This document shows, piece by piece, positions 3,325-28,468 of a DNA stretch of 32,000 nucleotides; position 1 is the first letter of the stretch; the number at the start of each line of letters is the position of its first letter. Source of the stretch: Dickeya solani IPO 2222 (lineage in GTDB: Bacteria; Pseudomonadota; Gammaproteobacteria; Enterobacterales; Enterobacteriaceae); NCBI RefSeq assembly GCF_001644705.1, contig NZ_CP015137.1, positions 2,700,001 to 2,732,000 of the forward strand. The letters are read 5' to 3'. The notes beneath the pieces were generated by a model. It was not told the origin of the DNA and made no database searches. It saw only the letters and a program-made list of their open reading frames with translations. Made by a program: the position numbers and the translations under genes.

Positions 3325-3945
3325 ATGAAAAAGACCAAATTTGCATTTTCGCTGGCGACGGTGGTTCTGGGAACGGTGCTGGCGGGTGGTCAGGCGCTGG
3401 CTGACCAGGAAACGCTGGCGCAGCAGGCGCAGCGTATCGCCGATACCGCAGGTAAAAAAATCGATAGTTCCGTACAGCAGGCCGCGGGCTATATGGATGA
3501 CAGCACCCTCACCGCCAGAGTGAAAAGCGCGCTGCTGAAAGATGAAACGCTCGACAGCAATGACATTTCCGTTTCCACCCGCGATGGCGTGGTGACGCTC
3601 AGCGGCTTTATCAGCAGCCAGCAGATGGCGACCGGCGCGGTGAAAATCGCTGCTCAGACCGAAGGGGTCAAGTCGGTCAGTGATAAATTGCAGGTGAAGG
3701 ATAACAGCGGCGTGCAGTCGGTCGGCGCGTATGCCGACGACACCCTCACCACCAGCACCATCAAGGCCAAACTGCTGGCGGATGACATTGTCCCCTCCCG
3801 CCACATTAAGGTAGAAACCCACGATGGCGTAGTGCTACTGACCGGTCAGGTGACGAATCGGGAGCAGGCCGATCGGGCGGAAGCTATCGCCAAAAACGTA
3901 AGCGGCGTCAAAAACGTCAAGAACGAGCTGACGGTGAAATCCTGA
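3325..3945 (+). CDS. osmY: periplasmic osmotically inducible protein OsmY (two BON domains)
   Basis: An internal ATG at 3325 follows aaggaagg. It gives [26 protein letters not shown] (signal peptide), then [14 protein letters not shown]...VVTLSGF and [31 protein letters not shown]...[18 protein letters not shown], matching E. coli OsmY. The prfC-osmY-ytjA synteny is the same as in E. coli. Confidence 0.93.
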
Positions 3946-11926: not shown

Positions 11927-13087
11927 ATGACGGAGATCCCACGGCATATTATTGAGCAGGCTATCGAATGGCGGCGTGACTTTCATGCTCATCCGGAAAT
12001 CGGCCTGCACGAGCACCGCACCTCGGCACGGGTAGCCGAACTGCTGGCGTCCTTCGGGCTGGAGGTGCATCAGGGGATGGCGCAGACCGGTGTCGTCGGG
12101 ACATTACGCTACGGCGCCGGGCCGGCCATCGGCCTGCGGGCGGACATGGACGCGCTGCCGATTCAGGAACTGAACCGGTTCTCACACCGTTCTCGTTCCG
12201 AGGGCTGCATGCACGCCTGCGGACACGATGGCCATACTGCGATGCTGCTGGCGGCAGCGCGCTATCTGAGCGAGACCCGCCGGTTTCGCGGTACGGTGCA
12301 TTTTGTGTTTCAGCCGGCGGAGGAGAACGCCGGCGGCGGCAACATGATGGTGCGGGAAGGGTTGTTCGAGCGTTTCCCGATGCAGGCGATCTATGCGTTG
12401 CACAACTGGCCGGGTCTGGCGGCGGGCGAGGTGGCGGTCACCCCCGGTCCGATGATGGCCTCGCAGGATAGCTTCCACATTATTCTGACCGGCGTGGGAT
12501 GCCACGCGGCGATGCCGGAACGCGGCGCCGATCCGATCGTGGCCGCCGCCCAGCTGATTATGGCGTTGCAGACCATTACCGCCCGCCGGTTGTCGCCGCT
12601 GGAACAGGCGGTGATCAGTATCACCCGCATCGAAGGCGGAGAGGCCGTCAACGCCATTCCGGGTCAGGTCACGCTGGCGGGCACGCTACGTTGTCTGACG
12701 GCGGACACGCGCGAGCGGGCGCGGCAACTGATTGGCGACTATGTGCAGGCGGTGCCGCAGCCGATGGGAGTACAAAGCGAGTTGCGCTGGCGGCATGGCT
12801 ATCCGGTAACGCAGAACCAGCCCGCCGCGGCCGAGACGGTGCGTGAGGCGGCGATCGCGGCGCTGGGCGCAGCGCGGGTGCACTGGAATCAGCCTCCCTC
12901 AATGGCGGCGGAAGATTTCTCTTACCTGCTACAGGCCTGCCCCGGCGCTTATTTCTGGCTGGGCGCGGACGGCGCATCGCCATCGGCTTCGCTGCACAAT
13001 GCAGAATACGATTTTAACGATGAGATTATCGCCAACGGCGTTCAGGTATGGGTGGAACTGGTGCAACGGTCGTTGCGTGCAAGTTAG
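11927..13087 (+). CDS. M20-family amidohydrolase (hippurate hydrolase / N-acyl-amino-acid amidohydrolase-like)
   Basis: The ATG at 11927 sits 8 nt after aggtgagg. The product has WRRDFHAHPEIGLHE, GLRADMDALPI, MHACGHDGHTAMLL, FQPAEE and HN..YDFND, typical of the peptidase M20D subfamily. Confidence 0.9.
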   Translation: MTEIPRHIIEQAIEWRRDFHAHPEIGLHEHRTSARVAELLASFGLEVHQGMAQTGVVGTLRYGAGPAIGLRADMDALPIQELNRFSHRSRSEGCMHACGHDGHTAMLLAAARYLSETRRFRGTVHFVFQPAEENAGGGNMMVREGLFERFPMQAIYALHNWPGLAAGEVAVTPGPMMASQDSFHIILTGVGCHAAMPERGADPIVAAAQLIMALQTITARRLSPLEQAVISITRIEGGEAVNAIPGQVTLAGTLRCLTADTRERARQLIGDYVQAVPQPMGVQSELRWRHGYPVTQNQPAAAETVREAAIAALGAARVHWNQPPSMAAEDFSYLLQACPGAYFWLGADGASPSASLHNAEYDFNDEIIANGVQVWVELVQRSLRAS

Positions 13088-13123
13088 GCCGATTGATAAC
13101 GACGATACGACCGACCCTGATGC

Positions 13124-13366
13124 TTAACGACCGATACTTCTCAACTGGGTGCAAAACGGGCAGGTGCAACCGCTGACCGATGTGGCATCGCAGATACCCA
13201 ATTGACCGGCTTGCTGGCCGGTAGCGACATGACCGTTGCTGAACGCCGTTTCCACCTGCGCCAGCTTCATGGCGTCATTCGGGTTGATCGGCGCCAGTTT
13301 GGCCTGAAACGCCGACGCGTTGGCCGCCGCGAACGAGAGAAAAACCAGCGACATCCTGAGTTTCAT
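13124..13366 (-). CDS. small exported protein (80 aa precursor) with a C-terminal 4-Cys cluster; function unknown
   Basis: An internal ATG at 13366 gives a Sec-type signal MKLRMSLVFLSFAAANA|SAF. The mature ~62 aa ends GHVATGQQAGQLGICDATSVSGCTCPFCTQLRSIGR (C-x8-C-x-C-x2-C plus His). I recognise no family. The longer 13423 start in the track runs through the tandem repeat. Confidence 0.55.
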   Translation of the reverse strand: MKLRMSLVFLSFAAANASAFQAKLAPINPNDAMKLAQVETAFSNGHVATGQQAGQLGICDATSVSGCTCPFCTQLRSIGR

Positions 13367-13383
13367 GACAGACCGCCTGTAGG

Positions 13384-13434
13384 TTGCAAAGTAAATCATG
13401 TTGCAAAGTAAATCATGTTGCAAAATAAATCATG
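13384..13434. repeat. 17-bp tandem direct repeat x3 (ttgcaaagtaaatcatg)
   Basis: The copies are at 13384-13400 and 13401-13417 (identical) and 13418-13434 (one g>a change), followed by a partial ttgcgaagg. The array lies 18-68 nt upstream of the small exported protein's start codon. Confidence 0.9.
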
Positions 13435-13456
13435 TTGCGAAGGAATAATGACGGCT

Positions 13457-13471
13457 TGTTATAACATAACC
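13457..13471. promoter_or_regulatory. Zur-box-like (Fur-family) operator, copy 2
   Basis: TGTTATAACATAACc shares 14 nt with the palindrome at 13588-13606. Compare the enterobacterial Zur core as I recall it, TGTTATA-W-TATAACA. Confidence 0.45.
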
Positions 13472-13560
13472 TTTCCTGCTGCGCATCCCTCGTTCTCATC
13501 CTGAAATCGTACAGTTTGTAAGCGTTCATGACGGCCATGAGACCGTATTCGGCGACAGGT

Positions 13561-13589
13561 TTGACAGCGTTTTTGGGTTTCTTTATTGT
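13561..13589 (+). promoter_or_regulatory. sigma70 promoter candidate for the ABC importer operon
   Basis: A perfect -35 TTGACA (13561-13566) is followed by a 17-nt spacer and the -10 TATTGT (13584-13589). The -10 overlaps the 18-bp palindrome, so a bound repressor would occlude it. Confidence 0.55.
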
Positions 13590-13606
13590 TATGTTATAAC
13601 ATAACA
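13588..13606. promoter_or_regulatory. Zur-box-like operator, copy 1 (perfect 18-bp palindrome)
   Basis: GTTATGTTATAACATAAC (13588-13605) equals its own reverse complement. The embedded 15-mer TGTTATAACATAACA (13592-13606) differs from the recalled Zur core TGTTATAWTATAACA at one position. It lies 27 nt upstream of the ATPase ATG. Confidence 0.5.
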
Positions 13607-13632
13607 TTTTAAATCTCGGGAGTCGCTCTCGA

Positions 13633-14448
13633 ATGTGGCAGGCCAGGCCGCCCTTACTGCGGGTAGAACATCTGAACGTGGCGCATTCCGCCGGTCAGCC
13701 CTTGCTTACCGATATTCATTTTGCGGTCGGGAGCGGGGAATGTCTGGCGATTGTCGGCCCCAACGGCAGCGGCAAATCTACGCTGTTGCGCGCGTTGCTG
13801 CATGACCCGCCGCCGGCAAGCGGCTGTGTCTGGCTGGGTGATAAACCGCTGGCGCAGCTGTCCCGGTCACAACGGGCGCGGCGTATCGCGCTGATGAGCC
13901 AGCATGACTCCCCCAGCCTCGCGTTAACGGTGGAGGAGTACGTGTCGCTTGGCTGCCTGCCGCATGCCGATGCGCTGCCGTTGTCGGCACAACAGTCCAC
14001 GGTGGCGCAGGTGCTGGATGAAACCGGCTTGTCATCATTACGGCAGCGCAGCCTGGCGGCGTTGTCCGGCGGGGAACGCCAGCGGGCGTTTCTGGCGCGC
14101 GCGCTGGCGCAGCGTCCGGATCTGCTGCTGCTGGACGAACCGACCAACCATCTGGACCCGCTCGGGCGGGCGGCGTTGCTGGCGCTGGTGCGACAGCGCG
14201 GCATCGCCGTGGTGGCGGTATTGCACGATTTATCGCTGGTGGAGCCGTTCGCCGATCGGGTGTTGGTGCTGTGTCAGGGCCGACAGAGGTGTTGGGATGT
14301 GCCGTCCCGGGCGCTCGCCAGCGATTGTGTCTACCCGGTGTTCGGCATTCGCAGCTTCACGGTTCCCCATCCGGAAACCGGCCTGCCGTTTCGCTTGTTT
14401 GACGCGCCCGCAGGCGCGTGTGGATTTATTACCAGAGGAAGTCTATGA
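13633..14448 (+). CDS. ABC transporter ATP-binding protein (FepC/FhuC/BtuD-like)
   Basis: It has Walker A GPNGSGKST, the signature LSGGERQR, Walker B LLLLDEPTNHLD and the H-loop VLHD. Its stop overlaps the next start (ATGA at 14445-14448). Confidence 0.9.
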   Translation: MWQARPPLLRVEHLNVAHSAGQPLLTDIHFAVGSGECLAIVGPNGSGKSTLLRALLHDPPPASGCVWLGDKPLAQLSRSQRARRIALMSQHDSPSLALTVEEYVSLGCLPHADALPLSAQQSTVAQVLDETGLSSLRQRSLAALSGGERQRAFLARALAQRPDLLLLDEPTNHLDPLGRAALLALVRQRGIAVVAVLHDLSLVEPFADRVLVLCQGRQRCWDVPSRALASDCVYPVFGIRSFTVPHPETGLPFRLFDAPAGACGFITRGSL

Positions 14449-15437
14449 AAATATCATGCGGCGGCGCGTCGCTAGTTAACGGTTCAGTCGCGTTGATGGG
14501 CCTGTTGTTGGGATTCAGCGCCGCCACGGCGCAGGCGTCGGGGTTCCCGGTGACGGTACAGAGTTGCGGCAAGCCGCTGACCTTCACCCAGGCGCCGCAG
14601 CGCGCCATCATCAACGATCTCAATATGTCCGAAATGGCGTTCGCACTGCATCTGCAACCGCGGATCGTCGGCCTGACCGGCATCAGCGGCTGGTACAAGA
14701 TGACGCCGGAATTTCGCCGGCAAATGGGGACGATTCCGGAGCTGTCGCCGAAATACCCGTCGCTGGAAACCCTGCTGGGCGCCAGTCCGGATTTCTTCTT
14801 CGCCGGCTGGAACTACGGCATGAAAGTGGGCGGCGACGTCACGCCGGATACACTGGCGAAATACGGCGTCAAAACGCTGGTGCTGAGCGAAAGCTGTATT
14901 TTCGAAGACCAGCATCGTCCGCGCGCCAGCATGGATTTGCTGTACGACGACGAACTGACGCTGGGAAAAATTTTCGGCCGCGAGGAGCAGGCGCAGGCGC
15001 TGGTAGATCAGTGGAAGGCACGGCTGGCGGCCTTGCCTAAACCACCGTCGGGTCAGGCGCCGCTCAAGGTATTCGTCTATGACTCCGGCGAGGATAAACC
15101 CTTTACCAGCGGCGTTTACGCCATGCCGACCGCCATTATCGACGCCGCGGGCGGCCGCAATGTGATGGACGGCATGGCGGCAAGCTGGGCCACCACCTCC
15201 TGGGAAACGGTGTCGGCGGCGGAACCGGATCTGATCATTCTGCTGGATTATCAGAACGGCGGTGGCGCGACGGCGTTGCAGCATTTTCTGGAGGCCCATC
15301 CGCTGATGAAACACACCCCGGCAGTGGCGCATCAGCGTTACCTGAAGCTGCAATACGCCGAGCTGACGCCGGGGCCGGCCAATATCGCCGCGATTGAAAA
15401 GCTCGCGCACGCGCTCTACCCGGCTGCGGCCCGATGA
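14445..15437 (+). CDS. periplasmic substrate-binding protein (siderophore/cobalamin-type, Peripla_BP_2-like)
   Basis: The ATG at 14445 follows agagga. The signal peptide is MKISCGGASLVNGSVALMGLLLGFSAATAQA. The product has the length and layout of FecB/BtuF-class binding proteins, and sits between a FepC-like ATPase and a FecCD permease with ATGA overlaps on both sides. Confidence 0.85.
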   Translation: MKISCGGASLVNGSVALMGLLLGFSAATAQASGFPVTVQSCGKPLTFTQAPQRAIINDLNMSEMAFALHLQPRIVGLTGISGWYKMTPEFRRQMGTIPELSPKYPSLETLLGASPDFFFAGWNYGMKVGGDVTPDTLAKYGVKTLVLSESCIFEDQHRPRASMDLLYDDELTLGKIFGREEQAQALVDQWKARLAALPKPPSGQAPLKVFVYDSGEDKPFTSGVYAMPTAIIDAAGGRNVMDGMAASWATTSWETVSAAEPDLIILLDYQNGGGATALQHFLEAHPLMKHTPAVAHQRYLKLQYAELTPGPANIAAIEKLAHALYPAAAR

Positions 15438-16432
15438 AGGCGCGCCGTCATTATGCGTTGATCTGCCTGCTGATAGTAACCCTGCTGCTGGCGATGATGC
15501 TGTTCAGCACCGCGGTGGGCGCGGTCCGTATTCCGCTGACGCAGGTGCTGGCGGCGCTGACGCCGGATCACGGCGACGCGCCGGACAGCGTGCGCCGCAT
15601 CGTGCTGGAACTGCGCCTGCCGCGCACTCTGCTGGCGGCGATCACCGGCGCCGGGCTGGCGATGGTCGGCGCACTGTTGCAAACCACCACCCGCAACGAT
15701 CTGGCGGATCCGTTTCTGTTCGGCTTGTCCTCCGGCGCGTCGGCGGGCGCGGTGCTGGTGATCACCCGTTTTGGCGAGTGGTTCGGCGCGTTCACGCTGC
15801 CGGTCGCGGCGTTTGGCGGCGGCATTTGCTCGGCACTGGCGGTGATGCTGCTGTTTTTCCTGCGACAGGGGCGGCAGGCCGAGCATTTGGTGATCTGCGG
15901 GTTGGCTATTTCGTTTCTGTTTGGCGCGCTCACCAGTTATCTGGCGTTCTCCGGCGACCAGCGCGCCGCCAGTTCGGTGCTGTTCTGGTCGCTGGGCGGG
16001 CTGGGGCTGGCGCGCTGGGAAAATCTGCCGGTGGCGTTAAGCAGCCTGGCGTTGCTGGTTGGGTTAGTGTTGGTACGCTGGCGGGCACTGGATAGCCTGT
16101 TGGCCGGGGAGCAGACGGCGGCGTCGCTGGGGGTTCACGTCAACCGGTTGCGGGTCGACGTGTTTCTGTGTTGCGCGCTGGCGACGGCATTGCTGGTGTC
16201 GCTGACCGGCGTGATTGGGTTTGTCGGGCTGATGGTGCCCCACCTGTGCCGCCCGCTGGCCGGTGCGCGCCATCGGCGACTGATCCCGCTGTGCGGCTTG
16301 CTGGGGGCGGCGCTGCTGTGCGGCGGCGATACCCTCAGCCGGGTGCTGCTGCCGTCGCAGGAACTGCCGGTGGGGATTGTTACCGCCGGGTTGGGGGGCG
16401 TCTTCGTGATTGCCCTGCTGGCCAAACGTTAG
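15434..16432 (+). CDS. ABC transporter permease, FecCD/BtuC family
   Basis: The 332-aa polytopic membrane protein carries [38 protein letters not shown], the G(V)[10 protein letters not shown] motif and [19 protein letters not shown], all typical of the FecCD family. Confidence 0.9.
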
Positions 16433-26110: not shown

Positions 26111-28468
26111 TCAGGCGTGCGCCGCGGTGCCGGCGACTGGCGCCTGACGCAGCAGCCGCAGGCCATTGCCCACTACCAGCAGGCTGGCGCCGACATCGGC
26201 GAACACCGCCATCCACATGGTGCCCATACCCAGCAAGGTGAGCGTCAGGAACAGCGCCTTGATGCCGAGCGCCAGCACGATGTTCTGGATCAGGATGGCG
26301 CGGGTGGCTTTGGAAATGCGCACAAATTCCGGGATCTTGCGCAAGTCGTCGTTCATCAGCGCCACATCGGCGGTTTCAATCGCGCTGTCGGTGCCCATCG
26401 CTCCCATGGCGAAACCGATATCCGCGCGCGCCAGCGCCGGGGTGTCGTTGATGCCGTCGCCCACCATGCCGATCACGCCCTGCGATGACAGCCGTTCAAT
26501 CTGCGACAGCTTGTCTTCCGGCAACAGGTTGCCGCGCGCTTCATCAATTCCCACATCGCGGGCGATAGCCTGCGCCACGTGCTGGTTGTCGCCGGTGAGC
26601 ATCAGGGTTTTAATGCCGGCCTGATGCAGCGCGTTGATCGCTTCCTGACTGGAAGGTTTCACCGTGTCGGCCACCGTCATCAGCGCCAGAATCTGCCGCT
26701 CGTCGCCCAGAATGATCGCGGTGTTGCCCGCCTGCTCCAGTGCGGTCAGCCGCTCGCTAATGTCGGTGGTCGCGTCGCCCAGCCACAGTCTGGCCAGCCG
26801 CTGGTTGCCGAGGAAATAGCGCTGTCCCTGTAAGGTGCCGATGACGCCCTGTCCGGCGACGGCGCTGAAATCGTCGACGTCGATCAACGGCGTGCCGGCT
26901 TGTTGCGCCGCTCTCGCCACCGCCTGCGATACCGGGTGGTCGGAACGGCTGGCCAGGCTGGCGGCCAGTTGTCGGCAGCGGGCGTCGTCAACGTCGGCGA
27001 CCGGTTCAAAGCCGGTCTGTACCGGTTTGCCGTGGGTCAGGGTGCCAGTCTTGTCCAGCGCCAGCCAGGAGAGGGCGTGGCCTTTTTCCAGAAACACCCC
27101 GCCTTTGATCAGAATGCCGCGCCGCGCCGCCGCCGCCAGCCCGCTGACGATGGTCACCGGGGTGGAAATCACCAGCGCGCACGGACAGGCGATCACCAAC
27201 AGCACCAACGCTTTGTAGGTCCAGTCCAGCCAGTCGCCATCGGCGAACAGCGGCGGCAGCACCGCCACCAGCAGCGCCCCCAGAAACACCAGCGGGGTGT
27301 AGATACGGGCAAACCGGTCGACAAACCGCTGCGTCGGCGCTTTGGTTCCCTGCGCCTGTTCCACCGCGTGAATGATGCGCGCCAGCGTGGTGTTGGCCGC
27401 CGCTGCCGTCACCCGATATTCAAACGAGCCGCTTTCATTGATGGTGCCGGCAAACACGCTGTCGCCGACACGTTTATCCACCGGCAGGCTTTCCCCGGTA
27501 ATCGGCGCCTGATTGACGGCGGAGTGGCCGCTGGTGATTTCGCCATCCAGCGCGATACGTTCGCCGGGGCGCACCCGCACGATGCTGCCCGACGTAACGG
27601 TTTTGGCTTCCACTTCGCGCCAGTCGCCATCCGGCTGCTGTACGGTGGCGGTGTCCGGCGCCAGATTCATCAGCCCGGCGATGGCGTTGCGGGCGCGATC
27701 CAGCGAGCGCGCCTCAATGTGCTCGGCGAGGGTAAACAGCACCATCACCATCGCCGCTTCCGGCCATTGTTGCAGGATAAGCGCGCCGGTTACCGCGATG
27801 CTCATCAGCGCGTTGATGTTCAGGTTGCCGGTACGAAGGGCAATCCAGCCTTTGCGGTAGGTGGTCAGCCCGCTGGCCGCCACGGCGAGAATCGCCAGCA
27901 CCGCGGCCCACCACTCGGGCAGACCGGTCCATTCCACGGCTTCCGCGGCGGCGGCGGCCACCACCGCCAGCCCCAGCGGCCACCAGGATTTTTTCGGCTC
28001 CGGCGGCAGGGGCGTACGGTCGTTTTCGGTGCGGGCTTCGGGCTCAAAACCTAACGAGCGGATCGCGGCCAGCACCTTGTCCAGCGCGTCGTAGCGGTGG
28101 GTGACGGTCATCACCCGTTGCATCAGGTTGAACTCCAGCGCGCTCACTTCCGGCAGGGTGTCGAGTTTTTTGCGCAGCATCGTTTCTTCGGTCGGGCAGT
28201 CCATCTGCATGATGCGGATCGGCGTGCGTTGCTGGTCGCCGGTGCGCTCTGCACCCGTCAGCGCGGAGGTCGGCTGGGGCGGCGCCGAATTGTCGCAGCA
28301 ATGATTGGCGCACGATTGCCCGCTTTGCTGAGCGAGCGCGGCATTGGGCGCCGTCTGGCCCAGCCCGGCGTGCCCCTGCTGGTGTGGCCGGAACAGGGCC
28401 TTGCCCGGTTTTTCCAGCGCAACGGGCTGGAACTGACGGCGAGAAGTGGGTAAATGTTTCTCTGACAT
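26111..28468 (-). CDS. zntA: heavy-metal (Zn/Cd/Pb) translocating P1B-type ATPase, ZntA/CadA-like
   Basis: The 785-aa protein has an N-terminal Cys-rich stretch (SCANHCCDNS), an HMA domain with MDCPTEE, the TM CPC motif, DKTGTLT, and GDGINDTPAL followed by MGAMGTD. The SD aggaa precedes the ATG at 28468. Confidence 0.95.
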   Translation of the reverse strand: MSEKHLPTSRRQFQPVALEKPGKALFRPHQQGHAGLGQTAPNAALAQQSGQSCANHCCDNSAPPQPTSALTGAERTGDQQRTPIRIMQMDCPTEETMLRKKLDTLPEVSALEFNLMQRVMTVTHRYDALDKVLAAIRSLGFEPEARTENDRTPLPPEPKKSWWPLGLAVVAAAAAEAVEWTGLPEWWAAVLAILAVAASGLTTYRKGWIALRTGNLNINALMSIAVTGALILQQWPEAAMVMVLFTLAEHIEARSLDRARNAIAGLMNLAPDTATVQQPDGDWREVEAKTVTSGSIVRVRPGERIALDGEITSGHSAVNQAPITGESLPVDKRVGDSVFAGTINESGSFEYRVTAAAANTTLARIIHAVEQAQGTKAPTQRFVDRFARIYTPLVFLGALLVAVLPPLFADGDWLDWTYKALVLLVIACPCALVISTPVTIVSGLAAAARRGILIKGGVFLEKGHALSWLALDKTGTLTHGKPVQTGFEPVADVDDARCRQLAASLASRSDHPVSQAVARAAQQAGTPLIDVDDFSAVAGQGVIGTLQGQRYFLGNQRLARLWLGDATTDISERLTALEQAGNTAIILGDERQILALMTVADTVKPSSQEAINALHQAGIKTLMLTGDNQHVAQAIARDVGIDEARGNLLPEDKLSQIERLSSQGVIGMVGDGINDTPALARADIGFAMGAMGTDSAIETADVALMNDDLRKIPEFVRISKATRAILIQNIVLALGIKALFLTLTLLGMGTMWMAVFADVGASLLVVGNGLRLLRQAPVAGTAAHA

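Follow-up and report, generated by a model that had tools for sequence, protein, structure and literature searches.

A predicted Zur-controlled divergent region in Dickeya solani: a FecCD-type ABC importer and an undescribed family of small exported cysteine-motif proteins

Gene content of the locus

The window analyzed here is a stretch of 32,000 nucleotides of the Dickeya solani IPO 2222 genome (NZ_CP015137.1, positions 2,700,001 to 2,732,000), and all coordinates below are positions within it. Three consecutive genes on the forward strand encode an ABC importer, namely an ATP-binding subunit (13633..14448; PF00005, E = 1.7e-33), which in NCBIfam matches heme, FecE and FhuC-type ATPases, all under the cut-offs, a periplasmic substrate-binding protein of the Peripla_BP_2 family, class III/cluster A-II (14445..15437; PF01497, 5e-18), with 4mlz as the nearest solved structure, and a permease of the FecCD family (15434..16432; PF01032, E = 3e-88). 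As stated in the original prediction, both gene junctions overlap as ATGA, and the combination of PF01032, PF01497 and PF00005 in one operon identifies a type II (FecCD/BtuCD-type) importer. The binding protein matches PF01497 only, in agreement with the earlier view that this is not a ZnuABC system; a ZnuABC-type assignment was rejected given that no PF01297 match was found and that the ABC-3 score (17.3 bits) is below the 20.1 cut-off. The importer is widespread: besides soft-rot pathogens, it occurs in Serratia and Pantoea, and 557 Klebsiella plasmids carry it.

Divergently from this operon, on the reverse strand, lies a gene for an 80-residue exported protein (13124..13366), recognized as an open reading frame from its translation and orthologs. 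The adjacent M20 amidohydrolase gene, for which the original prediction had left open a coincidental presence, is either missing from other Dickeya or has another gene in its place, and its proximity is coincidental.

The divergent control region

The intergenic region contains, as originally noticed, a perfect 18-bp palindrome, GTTATGTTATAACATAAC (13588-13605), which is identical to the core of the Zur operator of Escherichia coli ykgM (L31p). The extended 20-mer TGTTATGTTATAACATAACA (box 1; 13587..13606, no strand), delineated by pattern match, ykgM identity, a position weight matrix (PWM) and conservation, fits the structure-based two-dimer Zur pattern TGWNAYRWTATAWYRTNWCA (Gilston et al.) at 20 of 20 positions, with 0 mismatches. 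The best register is thus the palindrome itself rather than the offset 15-mer that had been compared with the Zur core. When up to 3 mismatches to TGWNAYRWTATAWYRTNWCA are allowed, the whole window contains 5 matches (0.29 expected), four of them inside the divergent intergenic region.

The reported second copy facing the small gene is present as well. This weaker box 2 (CGGCTTGTTA/TAACATAACC; 13452..13471, no strand) shares with box 1 the 14 nt TGTTATAACATAAC, at 13457-13470, and fits the 18-bp skeleton RxxxYRxxR*YxxYRxxxY, with 4 mismatches to the 20-mer when read by eye. Scoring with a Zur PWM, a check proposed along with the original prediction, gave 39.6 for box 1 and only 9.9 bits for box 2, the outer left quarter of which is off consensus. 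On the strand of the small gene, inspection of box 2 reveals an extended -10-like element, TGTTATAAC. A sigma-70-type promoter-like site for the ABC operon, TTGACA-17-TATTGT (13561..13589, forward strand; 10 of 12 matches), is the sole such match in 13000-13800, with 0.5 expected, and box 1 overlaps both its -10, as had been claimed, and the predicted start region.

Two further features occupy this region. The first, which the original prediction does not mention, lies in the leader of the small gene: between box 2 and the start codon of the small gene there are three copies and a partial copy of a 17-bp tandem repeat, GTTGCAAAGTAAATCAT (13383..13445, no strand), the copy number of which depends on the species, being 3 in the window and D. 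dianthicola but 1 in D. undicola and D. fangzhongdai; the D. zeae group has another repeat in its place. Comparison of intergenic regions also revealed a conserved block between the two boxes (13506..13534, no strand), which is kept in nearly all Dickeya loci, with the exception of L095 and L096, and in Musicola.

Conservation of the operators and expression evidence

A matching box is located upstream of the ATPase gene or at the head of the operon in 34 non-Dickeya loci that span Klebsiella, Serratia, Pantoea, Pectobacterium, Brenneria, Ewingella, Aeromonas and Vibrio, and more than 30 species of enterobacteria, in addition to Aeromonas and Vibrio, keep box 1 at its position before the orthologous operon. 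Across 720 kb of enterobacterial flanks, nearly all PWM matches above 8 bits are such operators or their 5-bp shadow. Box 2 is conserved in Musicola and in most of the Dickeya loci examined, even in genomes with no ABC operon at this locus; it is missing from L095 and L096 and sub-threshold in L092. In some genomes, the importer operon is found in the company of other genes of the Zur regulon, sharing one operon with folE2 and a gamma-carbonic-anhydrase-like gene (L004) or neighboring zigA (L091) or znuA-cobW (L066).

In microarray experiments, the D. dadantii genes ABF-0018571-73 and their orthologs in P. atrosepticum were co-repressed with ykgM, ykgO and znuABC under oxygen limitation, a condition in which many iron genes shifted as well (PMC3349551). 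ABF-0018571-73 adjoins ahpC, as does the operon in the window. That 2012 study also mentions a D. dadantii ABC system with a zinc-transporting annotation (PMC3349551), which is probably the orthologous operon. Given the operator identity, the presence of the box across species and this co-variation in microarrays, the predicted control of the importer by Zur is well supported. It is also largely anticipated by known FecCD-type importers under Zur, such as PA2911-2914 of Pseudomonas aeruginosa (PMC11481552) and the yersinopine cluster (PMC7438024), so that the original description of these genes as unusual for a Zur regulon seems overstated; the importer is a zinc-starvation gene of an expected kind.

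A family of small exported proteins

The product of the small gene has a signal peptide ending in ANASA, followed by a mature chain of about 61 residues that starts with FQAK and carries the C-terminal motif G-x-C-x7-GC-x-C-x2-C-x2-LR. The cysteine spacing is hereby corrected from C-x8 to C-x7-C-x-C-x2-C, and the histidine previously included in the cluster is not conserved across the family. Orthologs are present in Dickeya and Musicola, and the family as a whole comprises approximately 25 clusters at 50% identity, all from Enterobacterales. Their common layout starts with a signal peptide, continues with about 35-40 residues of variable sequence and ends in a Cys-rich 22-mer that is conserved; the first cysteine is missing in two members. 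With dN/dS of 0.05-0.3 and every indel a multiple of 3, the gene is real and under purifying selection, as the original prediction of a conserved, exported Cys-motif protein implied. No match was detected in Pfam, NCBIfam or PDB, and AlphaFold models are unreliable (pLDDT 51 and 59). The protein founds an undescribed, unannotated family of Enterobacterales, encoded behind Zur-like sites in many enterobacteria.

The small gene and the importer had been predicted to form one functional module, which the comparison of genomes does not support. In Pectobacterium, the small gene lies apart from the importer and still has its own Zur-like box; Musicola and D. dianthicola retain the gene together with the box at a locus from which the importer is absent. 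Elsewhere, the small gene adjoins other Zur-regulon genes, its frequent neighbors including cobW/zigA, a dksA paralog, aztD and genes for outer-membrane uptake; a gene for a TonB-dependent receptor is also among its neighbors. The Zur-like sites before the small gene score 25.2 bits in Pectobacterium, 22.5 in Musicola, 18.4 in Dryocola, 15.2 in L104, 13.3 in D. dianthicola, 13.0 in S. plymuthica and 9.6 in Pluralibacter; no convincing box precedes it in Erwinia (2.3 bits) or Gibbsiella (no match). Since its own Zur-like box is kept when the gene is unlinked or the importer is absent at the locus, the small gene is best described as an autonomous candidate member of the Zur regulon and not as a dedicated partner of the importer.

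Substrate of the importer and alternative explanations

The orthologs in alpha- and beta-proteobacteria, with binding proteins 60-63% identical to that of Dickeya, are preceded by cobalamin riboswitches (17 of the 21 orthologous loci scanned), and in Rhodoferax the operon comes after cobB-cobO; there is no such riboswitch in the window. The association with riboswitches points to cobalt, zinc or a metal chelate as the substrate. The binding protein is nevertheless almost invariant, with 97 columns at least 97% identical over 81 alpha-, beta- and gamma-proteobacterial loci, and its conserved pocket residues are mainly Trp and Tyr, with one His, so that an organic ligand, a corrinoid included, would fit as well as a metal chelate. 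Two known systems add to the hint: PA2911-2914, which is under Zur, has an effect on cobalt content (PMC11481552), and CbtJKL of Sinorhizobium, which belongs to the same superfamily and is riboswitch-controlled, is a cobalt importer (PMC7689651).

The same riboswitches, the Rhodoferax gene order, the conserved aromatic residues and weak BtuF and BtuC matches could instead indicate import of a corrinoid (vitamin B12 or cobinamide), with Zur acting in Enterobacterales as a zinc-sparing switch to B12-dependent metabolism. We regard this as unlikely: BtuFCD is already present in Enterobacterales; an assignment to BtuFCD was rejected on scores far from the cut-offs (29 versus 234 bits for BtuF, 187 versus 334 for BtuC and 112 versus 281 for BtuD); gamma- and some beta-proteobacterial operons are embedded among znuA, cobW/zigA, folE2 and the gamma-carbonic-anhydrase-like gene; and CbtJKL, for all its riboswitch control, carries cobalt and not B12 (PMC7689651). 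Far less probable still is that the palindromes serve another regulator of the Fur family (Fur, Mur or Nur) and that the operon encodes a standard importer of iron siderophores, as the family annotation 'iron complex transport' and an extra Fur-like box at the orthologous loci of Klebsiella and Raoultella might imply. The best Fur-consensus match in the intergenic region of the window has 8/19 mismatches, which is background level, and box 1 has the very sequence of a Zur operator known from experiments, including the central TATA that separates Zur from Fur sites (PMC4219657).

For the small protein, the alternative is a Sec-exported pre-pro-peptide, the disulfide-bonded C-terminal part of which would be secreted as a signal, a toxin or an antimicrobial peptide and would bind no metal, Zur simply providing a low-zinc (host or plant) cue. 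The family layout is compatible with this and resembles that of heat-stable enterotoxin precursors, and the gene persists where the importer is missing at the locus. Moreover, oxidation to disulfides is the usual fate of cysteines that reach the periplasm by export, a point against zinc binding through thiolates. However, genes for metal uptake or zinc sparing recur in the neighborhood of the gene (cobW, aztD, TonB-dependent receptor, ABC importers), three-Cys members cannot pair all their cysteines, and the mature N-terminus (F20) is invariant, which implies that the whole mature chain matters. On balance, such a peptide seems rather unlikely.

Proposed mechanism and significance

The explanation that we favor, and consider reasonably probable as a whole, is a divergent Zur-repressed control region serving a metal importer and an independent small protein of the envelope. 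Under zinc sufficiency, Zn-Zur, probably as a dimer of dimers, would bind box 1 and thereby mask the importer promoter at its -10 and start region, and would also bind the weaker box 2, which coincides with the extended -10-like promoter of the small gene; zinc shortage would derepress the operon and the small gene alike. The most likely substrate of the importer is a divalent metal, either Zn(II) or, as its surrogate, Co(II), which would probably arrive in complex with a small organic ligand. After export via Sec, the product of the small gene would most likely act in the cell envelope when zinc is scarce, using its conserved C-terminal Cys motif either as an accessory that binds metal or as a peptide that is processed and secreted, in both cases independently of this importer.

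A bolder joint reading, to which we give only limited credence, combines a ribosomally made, Sec-exported, thiol-based metal scavenger with an importer family that is a dual-use system for cobalt and zinc or their chelates. The small protein, based on a CxCxxC knot, may then be a 'peptide zincophore' or a Zn/Co chaperone of the periplasm, and may represent a previously unrecognised part of the enterobacterial zinc-starvation response that feeds any envelope importer of the host; the importer family may be controlled by a cobalamin riboswitch, by Zur or, apparently in Phyllobacteriaceae, by both, depending on the lineage.

Zinc withholding by hosts, including plants, limits bacterial growth, and Znu-independent zinc uptake is poorly understood beyond a few pathogens. 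The alternation of Zur and cobalamin riboswitches in the regulation of the importer provides a concrete, testable link between the cobalt and zinc economies. If it binds metal, the small protein, the family of which has been missed by Pfam and NCBIfam, would be an unusual participant in zinc homeostasis, cysteine-based and either periplasmic or secreted.

Comparison with known systems

PA2911-PA2914 of P. aeruginosa, which comprises a TonB-dependent receptor, an ATPase, a binding protein and a FecCD-type permease and has been linked to pyochelin-cobalt import (PMC11481552), resembles the Dickeya importer in being a siderophore/B12-type ABC importer under Zur with the same implied role in zinc starvation. 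In contrast, the Dickeya operon includes no TonB-dependent receptor, and none flanks it in the window; no P. aeruginosa locus is among the best 80 genome matches (at least 60% identity). Dickeya is not known as a pyochelin producer. CbtJKL of Sinorhizobium similarly combines Peripla_BP_2 and FecCD components and is riboswitch-controlled, like the orthologs of the Dickeya operon in alpha- and beta-proteobacteria. The binding protein of the CbtJ-type riboswitch-led locus of S. fredii is only about 29% identical to that of Dickeya, and the gene order there is binding protein, permease, ATPase as opposed to ATPase, binding protein, permease; with the window also devoid of a riboswitch, identity with the cobalt importer was rejected. 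Opine zincophore importers of the yersinopine type are also FecCD/Peripla_BP_2 systems that acquire zinc under Zur (PMC7438024); a cnt system was discarded because the flanking genes scanned in the window and in L015, L017 and L030 are unrelated, with no biosynthesis genes like cntL (nicotianamine-synthase-like) or cntM (opine dehydrogenase) and no EamA export genes beside the operon.

Bufferins share with the small protein a Sec signal peptide ahead of a short core that contains Cys, which in bufferins acts on periplasmic metals, but they are RiPP precursors that MNIO enzymes modify. Neither an MNIO (DUF692) gene nor a partner gene was found in about 12 contexts (the window and loci from L084-L104), nor was there a DUF2282 match, and an MNIO-modified RiPP was accordingly rejected. 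The zinc chaperones ZinT, AztD and ZrgA/PA4063, which work in the periplasm and belong to Zur regulons, are, like the small protein, exported Zur-linked accessories encoded beside uptake systems; they are larger, folded and use His/Asp/Glu ligands, whereas the small protein has about 61 residues, is apparently poorly structured, carries CxCxxC and shows no sequence similarity to them. Finally, the regulatory counterpart is the ykgM/L31p operator (PMC4219657), which has the same 18-bp inverted repeat, the same 20/20 fit to the two-dimer pattern and the same overlap with a promoter; there it controls ribosomal-protein paralogs, whereas the Dickeya boxes are predicted to control an ABC importer and, through the weaker second copy, a small exported protein.

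Organization of the locus and its control region

The importer operon on the forward strand consists of genes for an ABC ATPase (13633-14448), a Peripla_BP_2 binding protein (14445-15437) and a FecCD permease (15434-16432), with an ATGA overlap at both junctions and with ahpC and ahpF located 3' of it. Divergent from this operon, and separated from the ATPase gene by a 266-bp control region, is a small gene on the reverse strand (13124-13366; ORF of 80 codons and its translation) which encodes an exported protein with a cysteine motif. The control region contains a perfect 18-bp palindrome (13588-13605), which is the core of a candidate Zur operator before the importer (box 1, 13587-13606), a second palindrome copy with 14 nt in common with the first (13457-13470), within a weaker candidate before the small gene (box 2, 13452-13471), and the sole sigma-70-like site in the area, TTGACA-17-TATTGT (13561-13589). 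The palindromes and the promoter are confirmed as originally described; missing from that description was a 17-bp tandem repeat in three copies (13383-13445) in the leader of the small gene, just 5' of it. Three copies of the repeat are also found in D. dianthicola and one in D. undicola and D. fangzhongdai; in the D. zeae group this leader carries another short repeat. Every repeat unit contains an ATG; that of the last unit shares the reading frame of the small ORF, but this upstream start lacks conservation.

Several other features of this neighborhood were observed. The block ATCGTACAGTTTGTAAGCGTTCATGACGG at 13506-13534, between the two Zur boxes, is kept in Musicola and in nearly all Dickeya loci (except L095 and L096), including genomes that lack the importer at this locus, and may bind a further regulator or serve as a promoter element. 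A heavy-metal P-type ATPase of the ZntA/CadA type, which scores above the subfamily cut-off and under the ZntA equivalog cut-off, is encoded about 10 kb from the candidate Zur locus (26111-28468, reverse strand). The adjacent M20 amidohydrolase gene, suggested previously as a possible partner, is a coincidental neighbor: in other Dickeya the position holds an acetyltransferase or nothing.

Probable Zur control of the importer

The crystal structure of the Zur-DNA complex defined the two-dimer Zur box of E. coli, TGWNAYRWTATAWYRTNWCA, with the 18-bp skeleton RxxxYRxxR*YxxYRxxxY (Gilston et al., PMC4219657). Box 1, TGTTATGTTATAACATAACA, fits this pattern at 20 of 20 positions. With up to three mismatches allowed, the pattern has five matches in the window against 0.29 expected, and four of these lie inside this intergenic region, corresponding either to box 2 or to box 1 in shifted registers. 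The Dickeya box sequence is also present, as detected by blastn, in most of 5,426 E. coli genomes, directly 5' of ykgM-ykgO; the 18-bp core of the ykgM operator, GGTTATGTTATAACATAACAGG, is identical to the Dickeya palindrome. On a 24-nt position weight matrix built from 31 non-Dickeya sites, box 1 scores 39.6 bits. The identification of the palindrome as a Zur-type site is thus borne out, and the original observation as a whole is confirmed; the offset 15-mer aligned in that prediction to TGTTATA-W-TATAACA with one mismatch is a valid alignment that represents only a secondary register. A Fur box was considered and rejected, the best match to the Fur consensus in the region having 8 mismatches in 19 positions, which is background. 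We also observe a Zur box, TGATATGTTATAACATATCA, 5' of a TonB-dependent receptor/DUF4198 gene pair on E. coli plasmids (locus L083, 3001-3028, pDETEC55).

A scan with the binding protein, using one genome per species, yielded at least 572 loci, of which the best 80 were kept. Among these, every locus showing all three genes has them in the order ATPase, binding protein, permease, and a box with at most two mismatches is located no more than 160 nt 5' of the ATPase start codon in 34 non-Dickeya loci, from Klebsiella, Raoultella, Shimwellia, Ewingella, Serratia, Pantoea, Samsonia, Budvicia, Brenneria, Pectobacterium, Buttiauxella, Entomohabitans, Superficieibacter, Aeromonas and Vibrio. The form of the box varies, being palindromic in some loci and the classical TGTTATA(A/T)TATAACA in others. 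Since the sampled loci contain true operators, all matrix matches in 720 kb of enterobacterial flanks were enumerated explicitly; those above 8 bits are almost all importer operators, their 5-bp shadows or operators of neighboring zinc genes.

In some loci, the box is located farther 5' and the importer is fused to, or lies beside, classic Zur-regulon genes. For example, in Cedecea/Enterobacter-type loci the box is followed by folE2, a gamma-carbonic-anhydrase-like gene and the importer (the product ending in LRNEF, encoded 5' of the ATPase and considered as a TonB-dependent receptor, is actually this hexapeptide-repeat protein); the Dryocola importer locus additionally includes cobW and aztD, and in a Comamonadaceae genome znuA-cobW is fused to the importer on its 5' side. 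In PLSDB, the importer is also found on plasmids of Klebsiella (557) and of E. coli (22). In the K. pneumoniae plasmid p205880-1 (L091, 6140-10592), the binding protein is 70% identical to that of Dickeya and zigA lies directly 3' of the importer.

Zur control of the importer is very probable and was largely anticipated. Published expression data show that a zinc link had already been suspected. The D. dadantii 3937 genes ABF-0018571, -72 and -73 encode the permease, binding protein and ATPase (Babujee et al., PMC3349551), and their numbering beside ahpC (ABF-0018570) indicates the same synteny as in the window. Expression of these genes falls 6-8-fold, and that of the P. atrosepticum orthologs 23-118-fold, alongside ykgM, ykgO and znuABC (PMC3349551); because the condition was oxygen limitation, this pattern is co-variation and not proof.

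The chromosomal importer copies of Klebsiella and Raoultella contain a Fur-box-like site (3-4 mismatches in 19 positions) about 60 nt 3' of the Zur box (L003 5063, L005 5060, L006 5094, L008 5061, L011 5086, L012 5035), which suggests dual control by zinc and iron; the Dickeya control region, in contrast, has no such site. A more distant copy in the Serratia proteamaculans/quinivorans/grimesii group (L046-L053; binding protein 62-66% identical) directly follows another gene and lacks a Zur box 5' of its ATPase gene, with only weak matrix matches of 8-13 bits about 1.3 kb 5'; this copy may be a differently regulated paralog. At 77% identity to that of Dickeya, the binding protein P0027, assigned to Liberibacter crescens, is unexpectedly close for a reduced-genome alphaproteobacterium; horizontal transfer or misassignment could explain this.

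Genomic independence of the small gene from the importer

The proposal that the importer and the small protein form a single capture-and-import module is not supported, since the small gene is unlinked in Pectobacterium, is retained in Musicola and D. dianthicola in the absence of an importer at this locus, and has varied neighbors elsewhere. In Pectobacterium, it follows amn, far from the importer, with CGTTATGTTATAACAAAC located 42 nt 5' of its start codon. Musicola and D. dianthicola have kept box 2 along with the small gene (22.5 and 13.3 bits, respectively). The D. dianthicola deletion left a scar (L101, 1112-1503) that joins the final ~60 nt of the permease gene to the region just 5' of the small gene, the ATPase and binding-protein genes, most of the permease gene and box 1 having been lost. 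The small gene is found between a dksA paralog and cobW in Pluralibacter, between a TonB-dependent receptor gene and cobW in Gibbsiella, after cobW in locus L104, divergent from an SBP_bac_5 ABC system in S. plymuthica, beside a KdgM porin gene and aztD in Dryocola, and, in two Pantoea, in the same divergent arrangement with the importer that Dickeya shows.

Zur-like sites precede the small gene in about 8 of 10 independent contexts; the site in Erwinia is marginal, and in Gibbsiella (L089) no match to the Zur matrix is found 5' of the gene. The Gibbsiella locus has a long inverted repeat, GTAGTAATGCTT-N5-AAGCATTACTAC (~3850-3880), in the region shared with the divergent receptor gene. Box 2 of the window reaches 9.9 bits and contains, on the strand of the small gene, TGTTATAAC, which reads as an extended -10-like element, so that Zur bound at box 2 would block initiation of the small gene. 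The small gene is itself likely to be under Zur control.

An undescribed family of small exported proteins

The small ORF is a conserved, real gene, with pairwise dN/dS of 0.05-0.3 among Dickeya, Musicola and Pectobacterium and with every indel a multiple of three. Close relatives are found only in Dickeya and Musicola. When 1.84 billion representative proteins were searched with a profile, only ~25 clusters emerged, two of which, consisting of long repetitive proteins, were left out. The named members are all from Enterobacterales (Pectobacterium, Gibbsiella, Pluralibacter, Erwinia, Serratia plymuthica/inhibens, Pantoea and Klebsiella sp.), and each is annotated as 'hypothetical protein'. No variation is seen in the Ala-Phe pair of the signal-peptidase site (mature N-terminus FQAK) or at G66, C67, C69 and C72, and almost none at C59, L75 and R76. 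The C-terminal cysteine cluster noted previously is present, with the spacing C-x7-C-x-C-x2-C; the histidine reported with it is not conserved. Profile searches of Pfam, NCBIfam and PDB detected no relative (top match, a TRIM32 RING fragment, E = 0.35), and AlphaFold2 models (pLDDT 51 with 7 sequences, 59 with 25) were too poor for a fold search. The small protein represents an undescribed family and is the more interesting part of the locus.

Given its genomic company, a role of the small protein in the envelope, in metal capture or hand-over, is favored. A bufferin-type RiPP was rejected because no modifying enzyme is encoded beside the gene in the window or in loci L084-L104. Cysteines of exported proteins are normally oxidized to disulfides, and the first cysteine is missing in two family members; both points argue against zinc-thiolate coordination and leave room for the alternative that the small protein is a secreted peptide unrelated to metals.

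Substrate of the importer and comparison with known systems

As predicted, the importer is not of the ZnuABC type: Pfam and NCBIfam searches gave no match above cut-off to ZnuABC, BtuFCD or any NCBIfam equivalog, and the closest solved structures to the binding protein are structural-genomics binding proteins whose ligand is not known. A cobalamin riboswitch is located 5' of the importer, on the same strand, in 17 of 21 scanned loci from alpha- and beta-proteobacteria, the binding proteins of which are 60-63% identical to that of Dickeya; a DUF1636 gene in Mesorhizobium and cobB-cobO in Rhodoferax lie between the riboswitch and the importer. Over 81 of 81 aligned sequences, the binding protein has 97 columns at least 97% identical, including two Cys, eight Trp/Tyr and one His, so the ligand is probably the same everywhere. 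A ligand wanted for B12 synthesis and also under zinc starvation would most simply be cobalt, or a chelate of cobalt or zinc; transport of a corrinoid instead is a live, if rather improbable, alternative. In the Phyllobacteriaceae/Rhizobiales orthologs L059, L062, L065 and L075, the riboswitch is accompanied by an alpha-proteobacterial Zur-like palindrome (e.g., AAATGTTATAACATTAC) about 200 nt farther 3', at 60-75 nt from the start of the ATPase gene (in L059, 4685-4898 and 5105-5122, respectively), which may mark a second, zinc-responsive promoter bypassing the riboswitch.

No cntL/cntM-like zincophore biosynthesis genes were detected beside the importer in the flanks scanned (the window, L015, L017 and L030); opine zincophores are also served by FecCD-type importers (PMC7438024). 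Two known systems are precedents for a cobalt-related ligand. The riboswitch-led CbtJKL system of Sinorhizobium was first thought to be a B12 transporter and proved to be a cobalt importer (PMC7689651). Orthology with it was rejected, as the S. fredii counterpart shares only ~29% identity with the Dickeya binding protein; the gene order differs as well. In P. aeruginosa, the Zur-regulated PA2911-2914 system has been linked to pyochelin-cobalt import, with cobalt easing the demand for zinc (PMC11481552).
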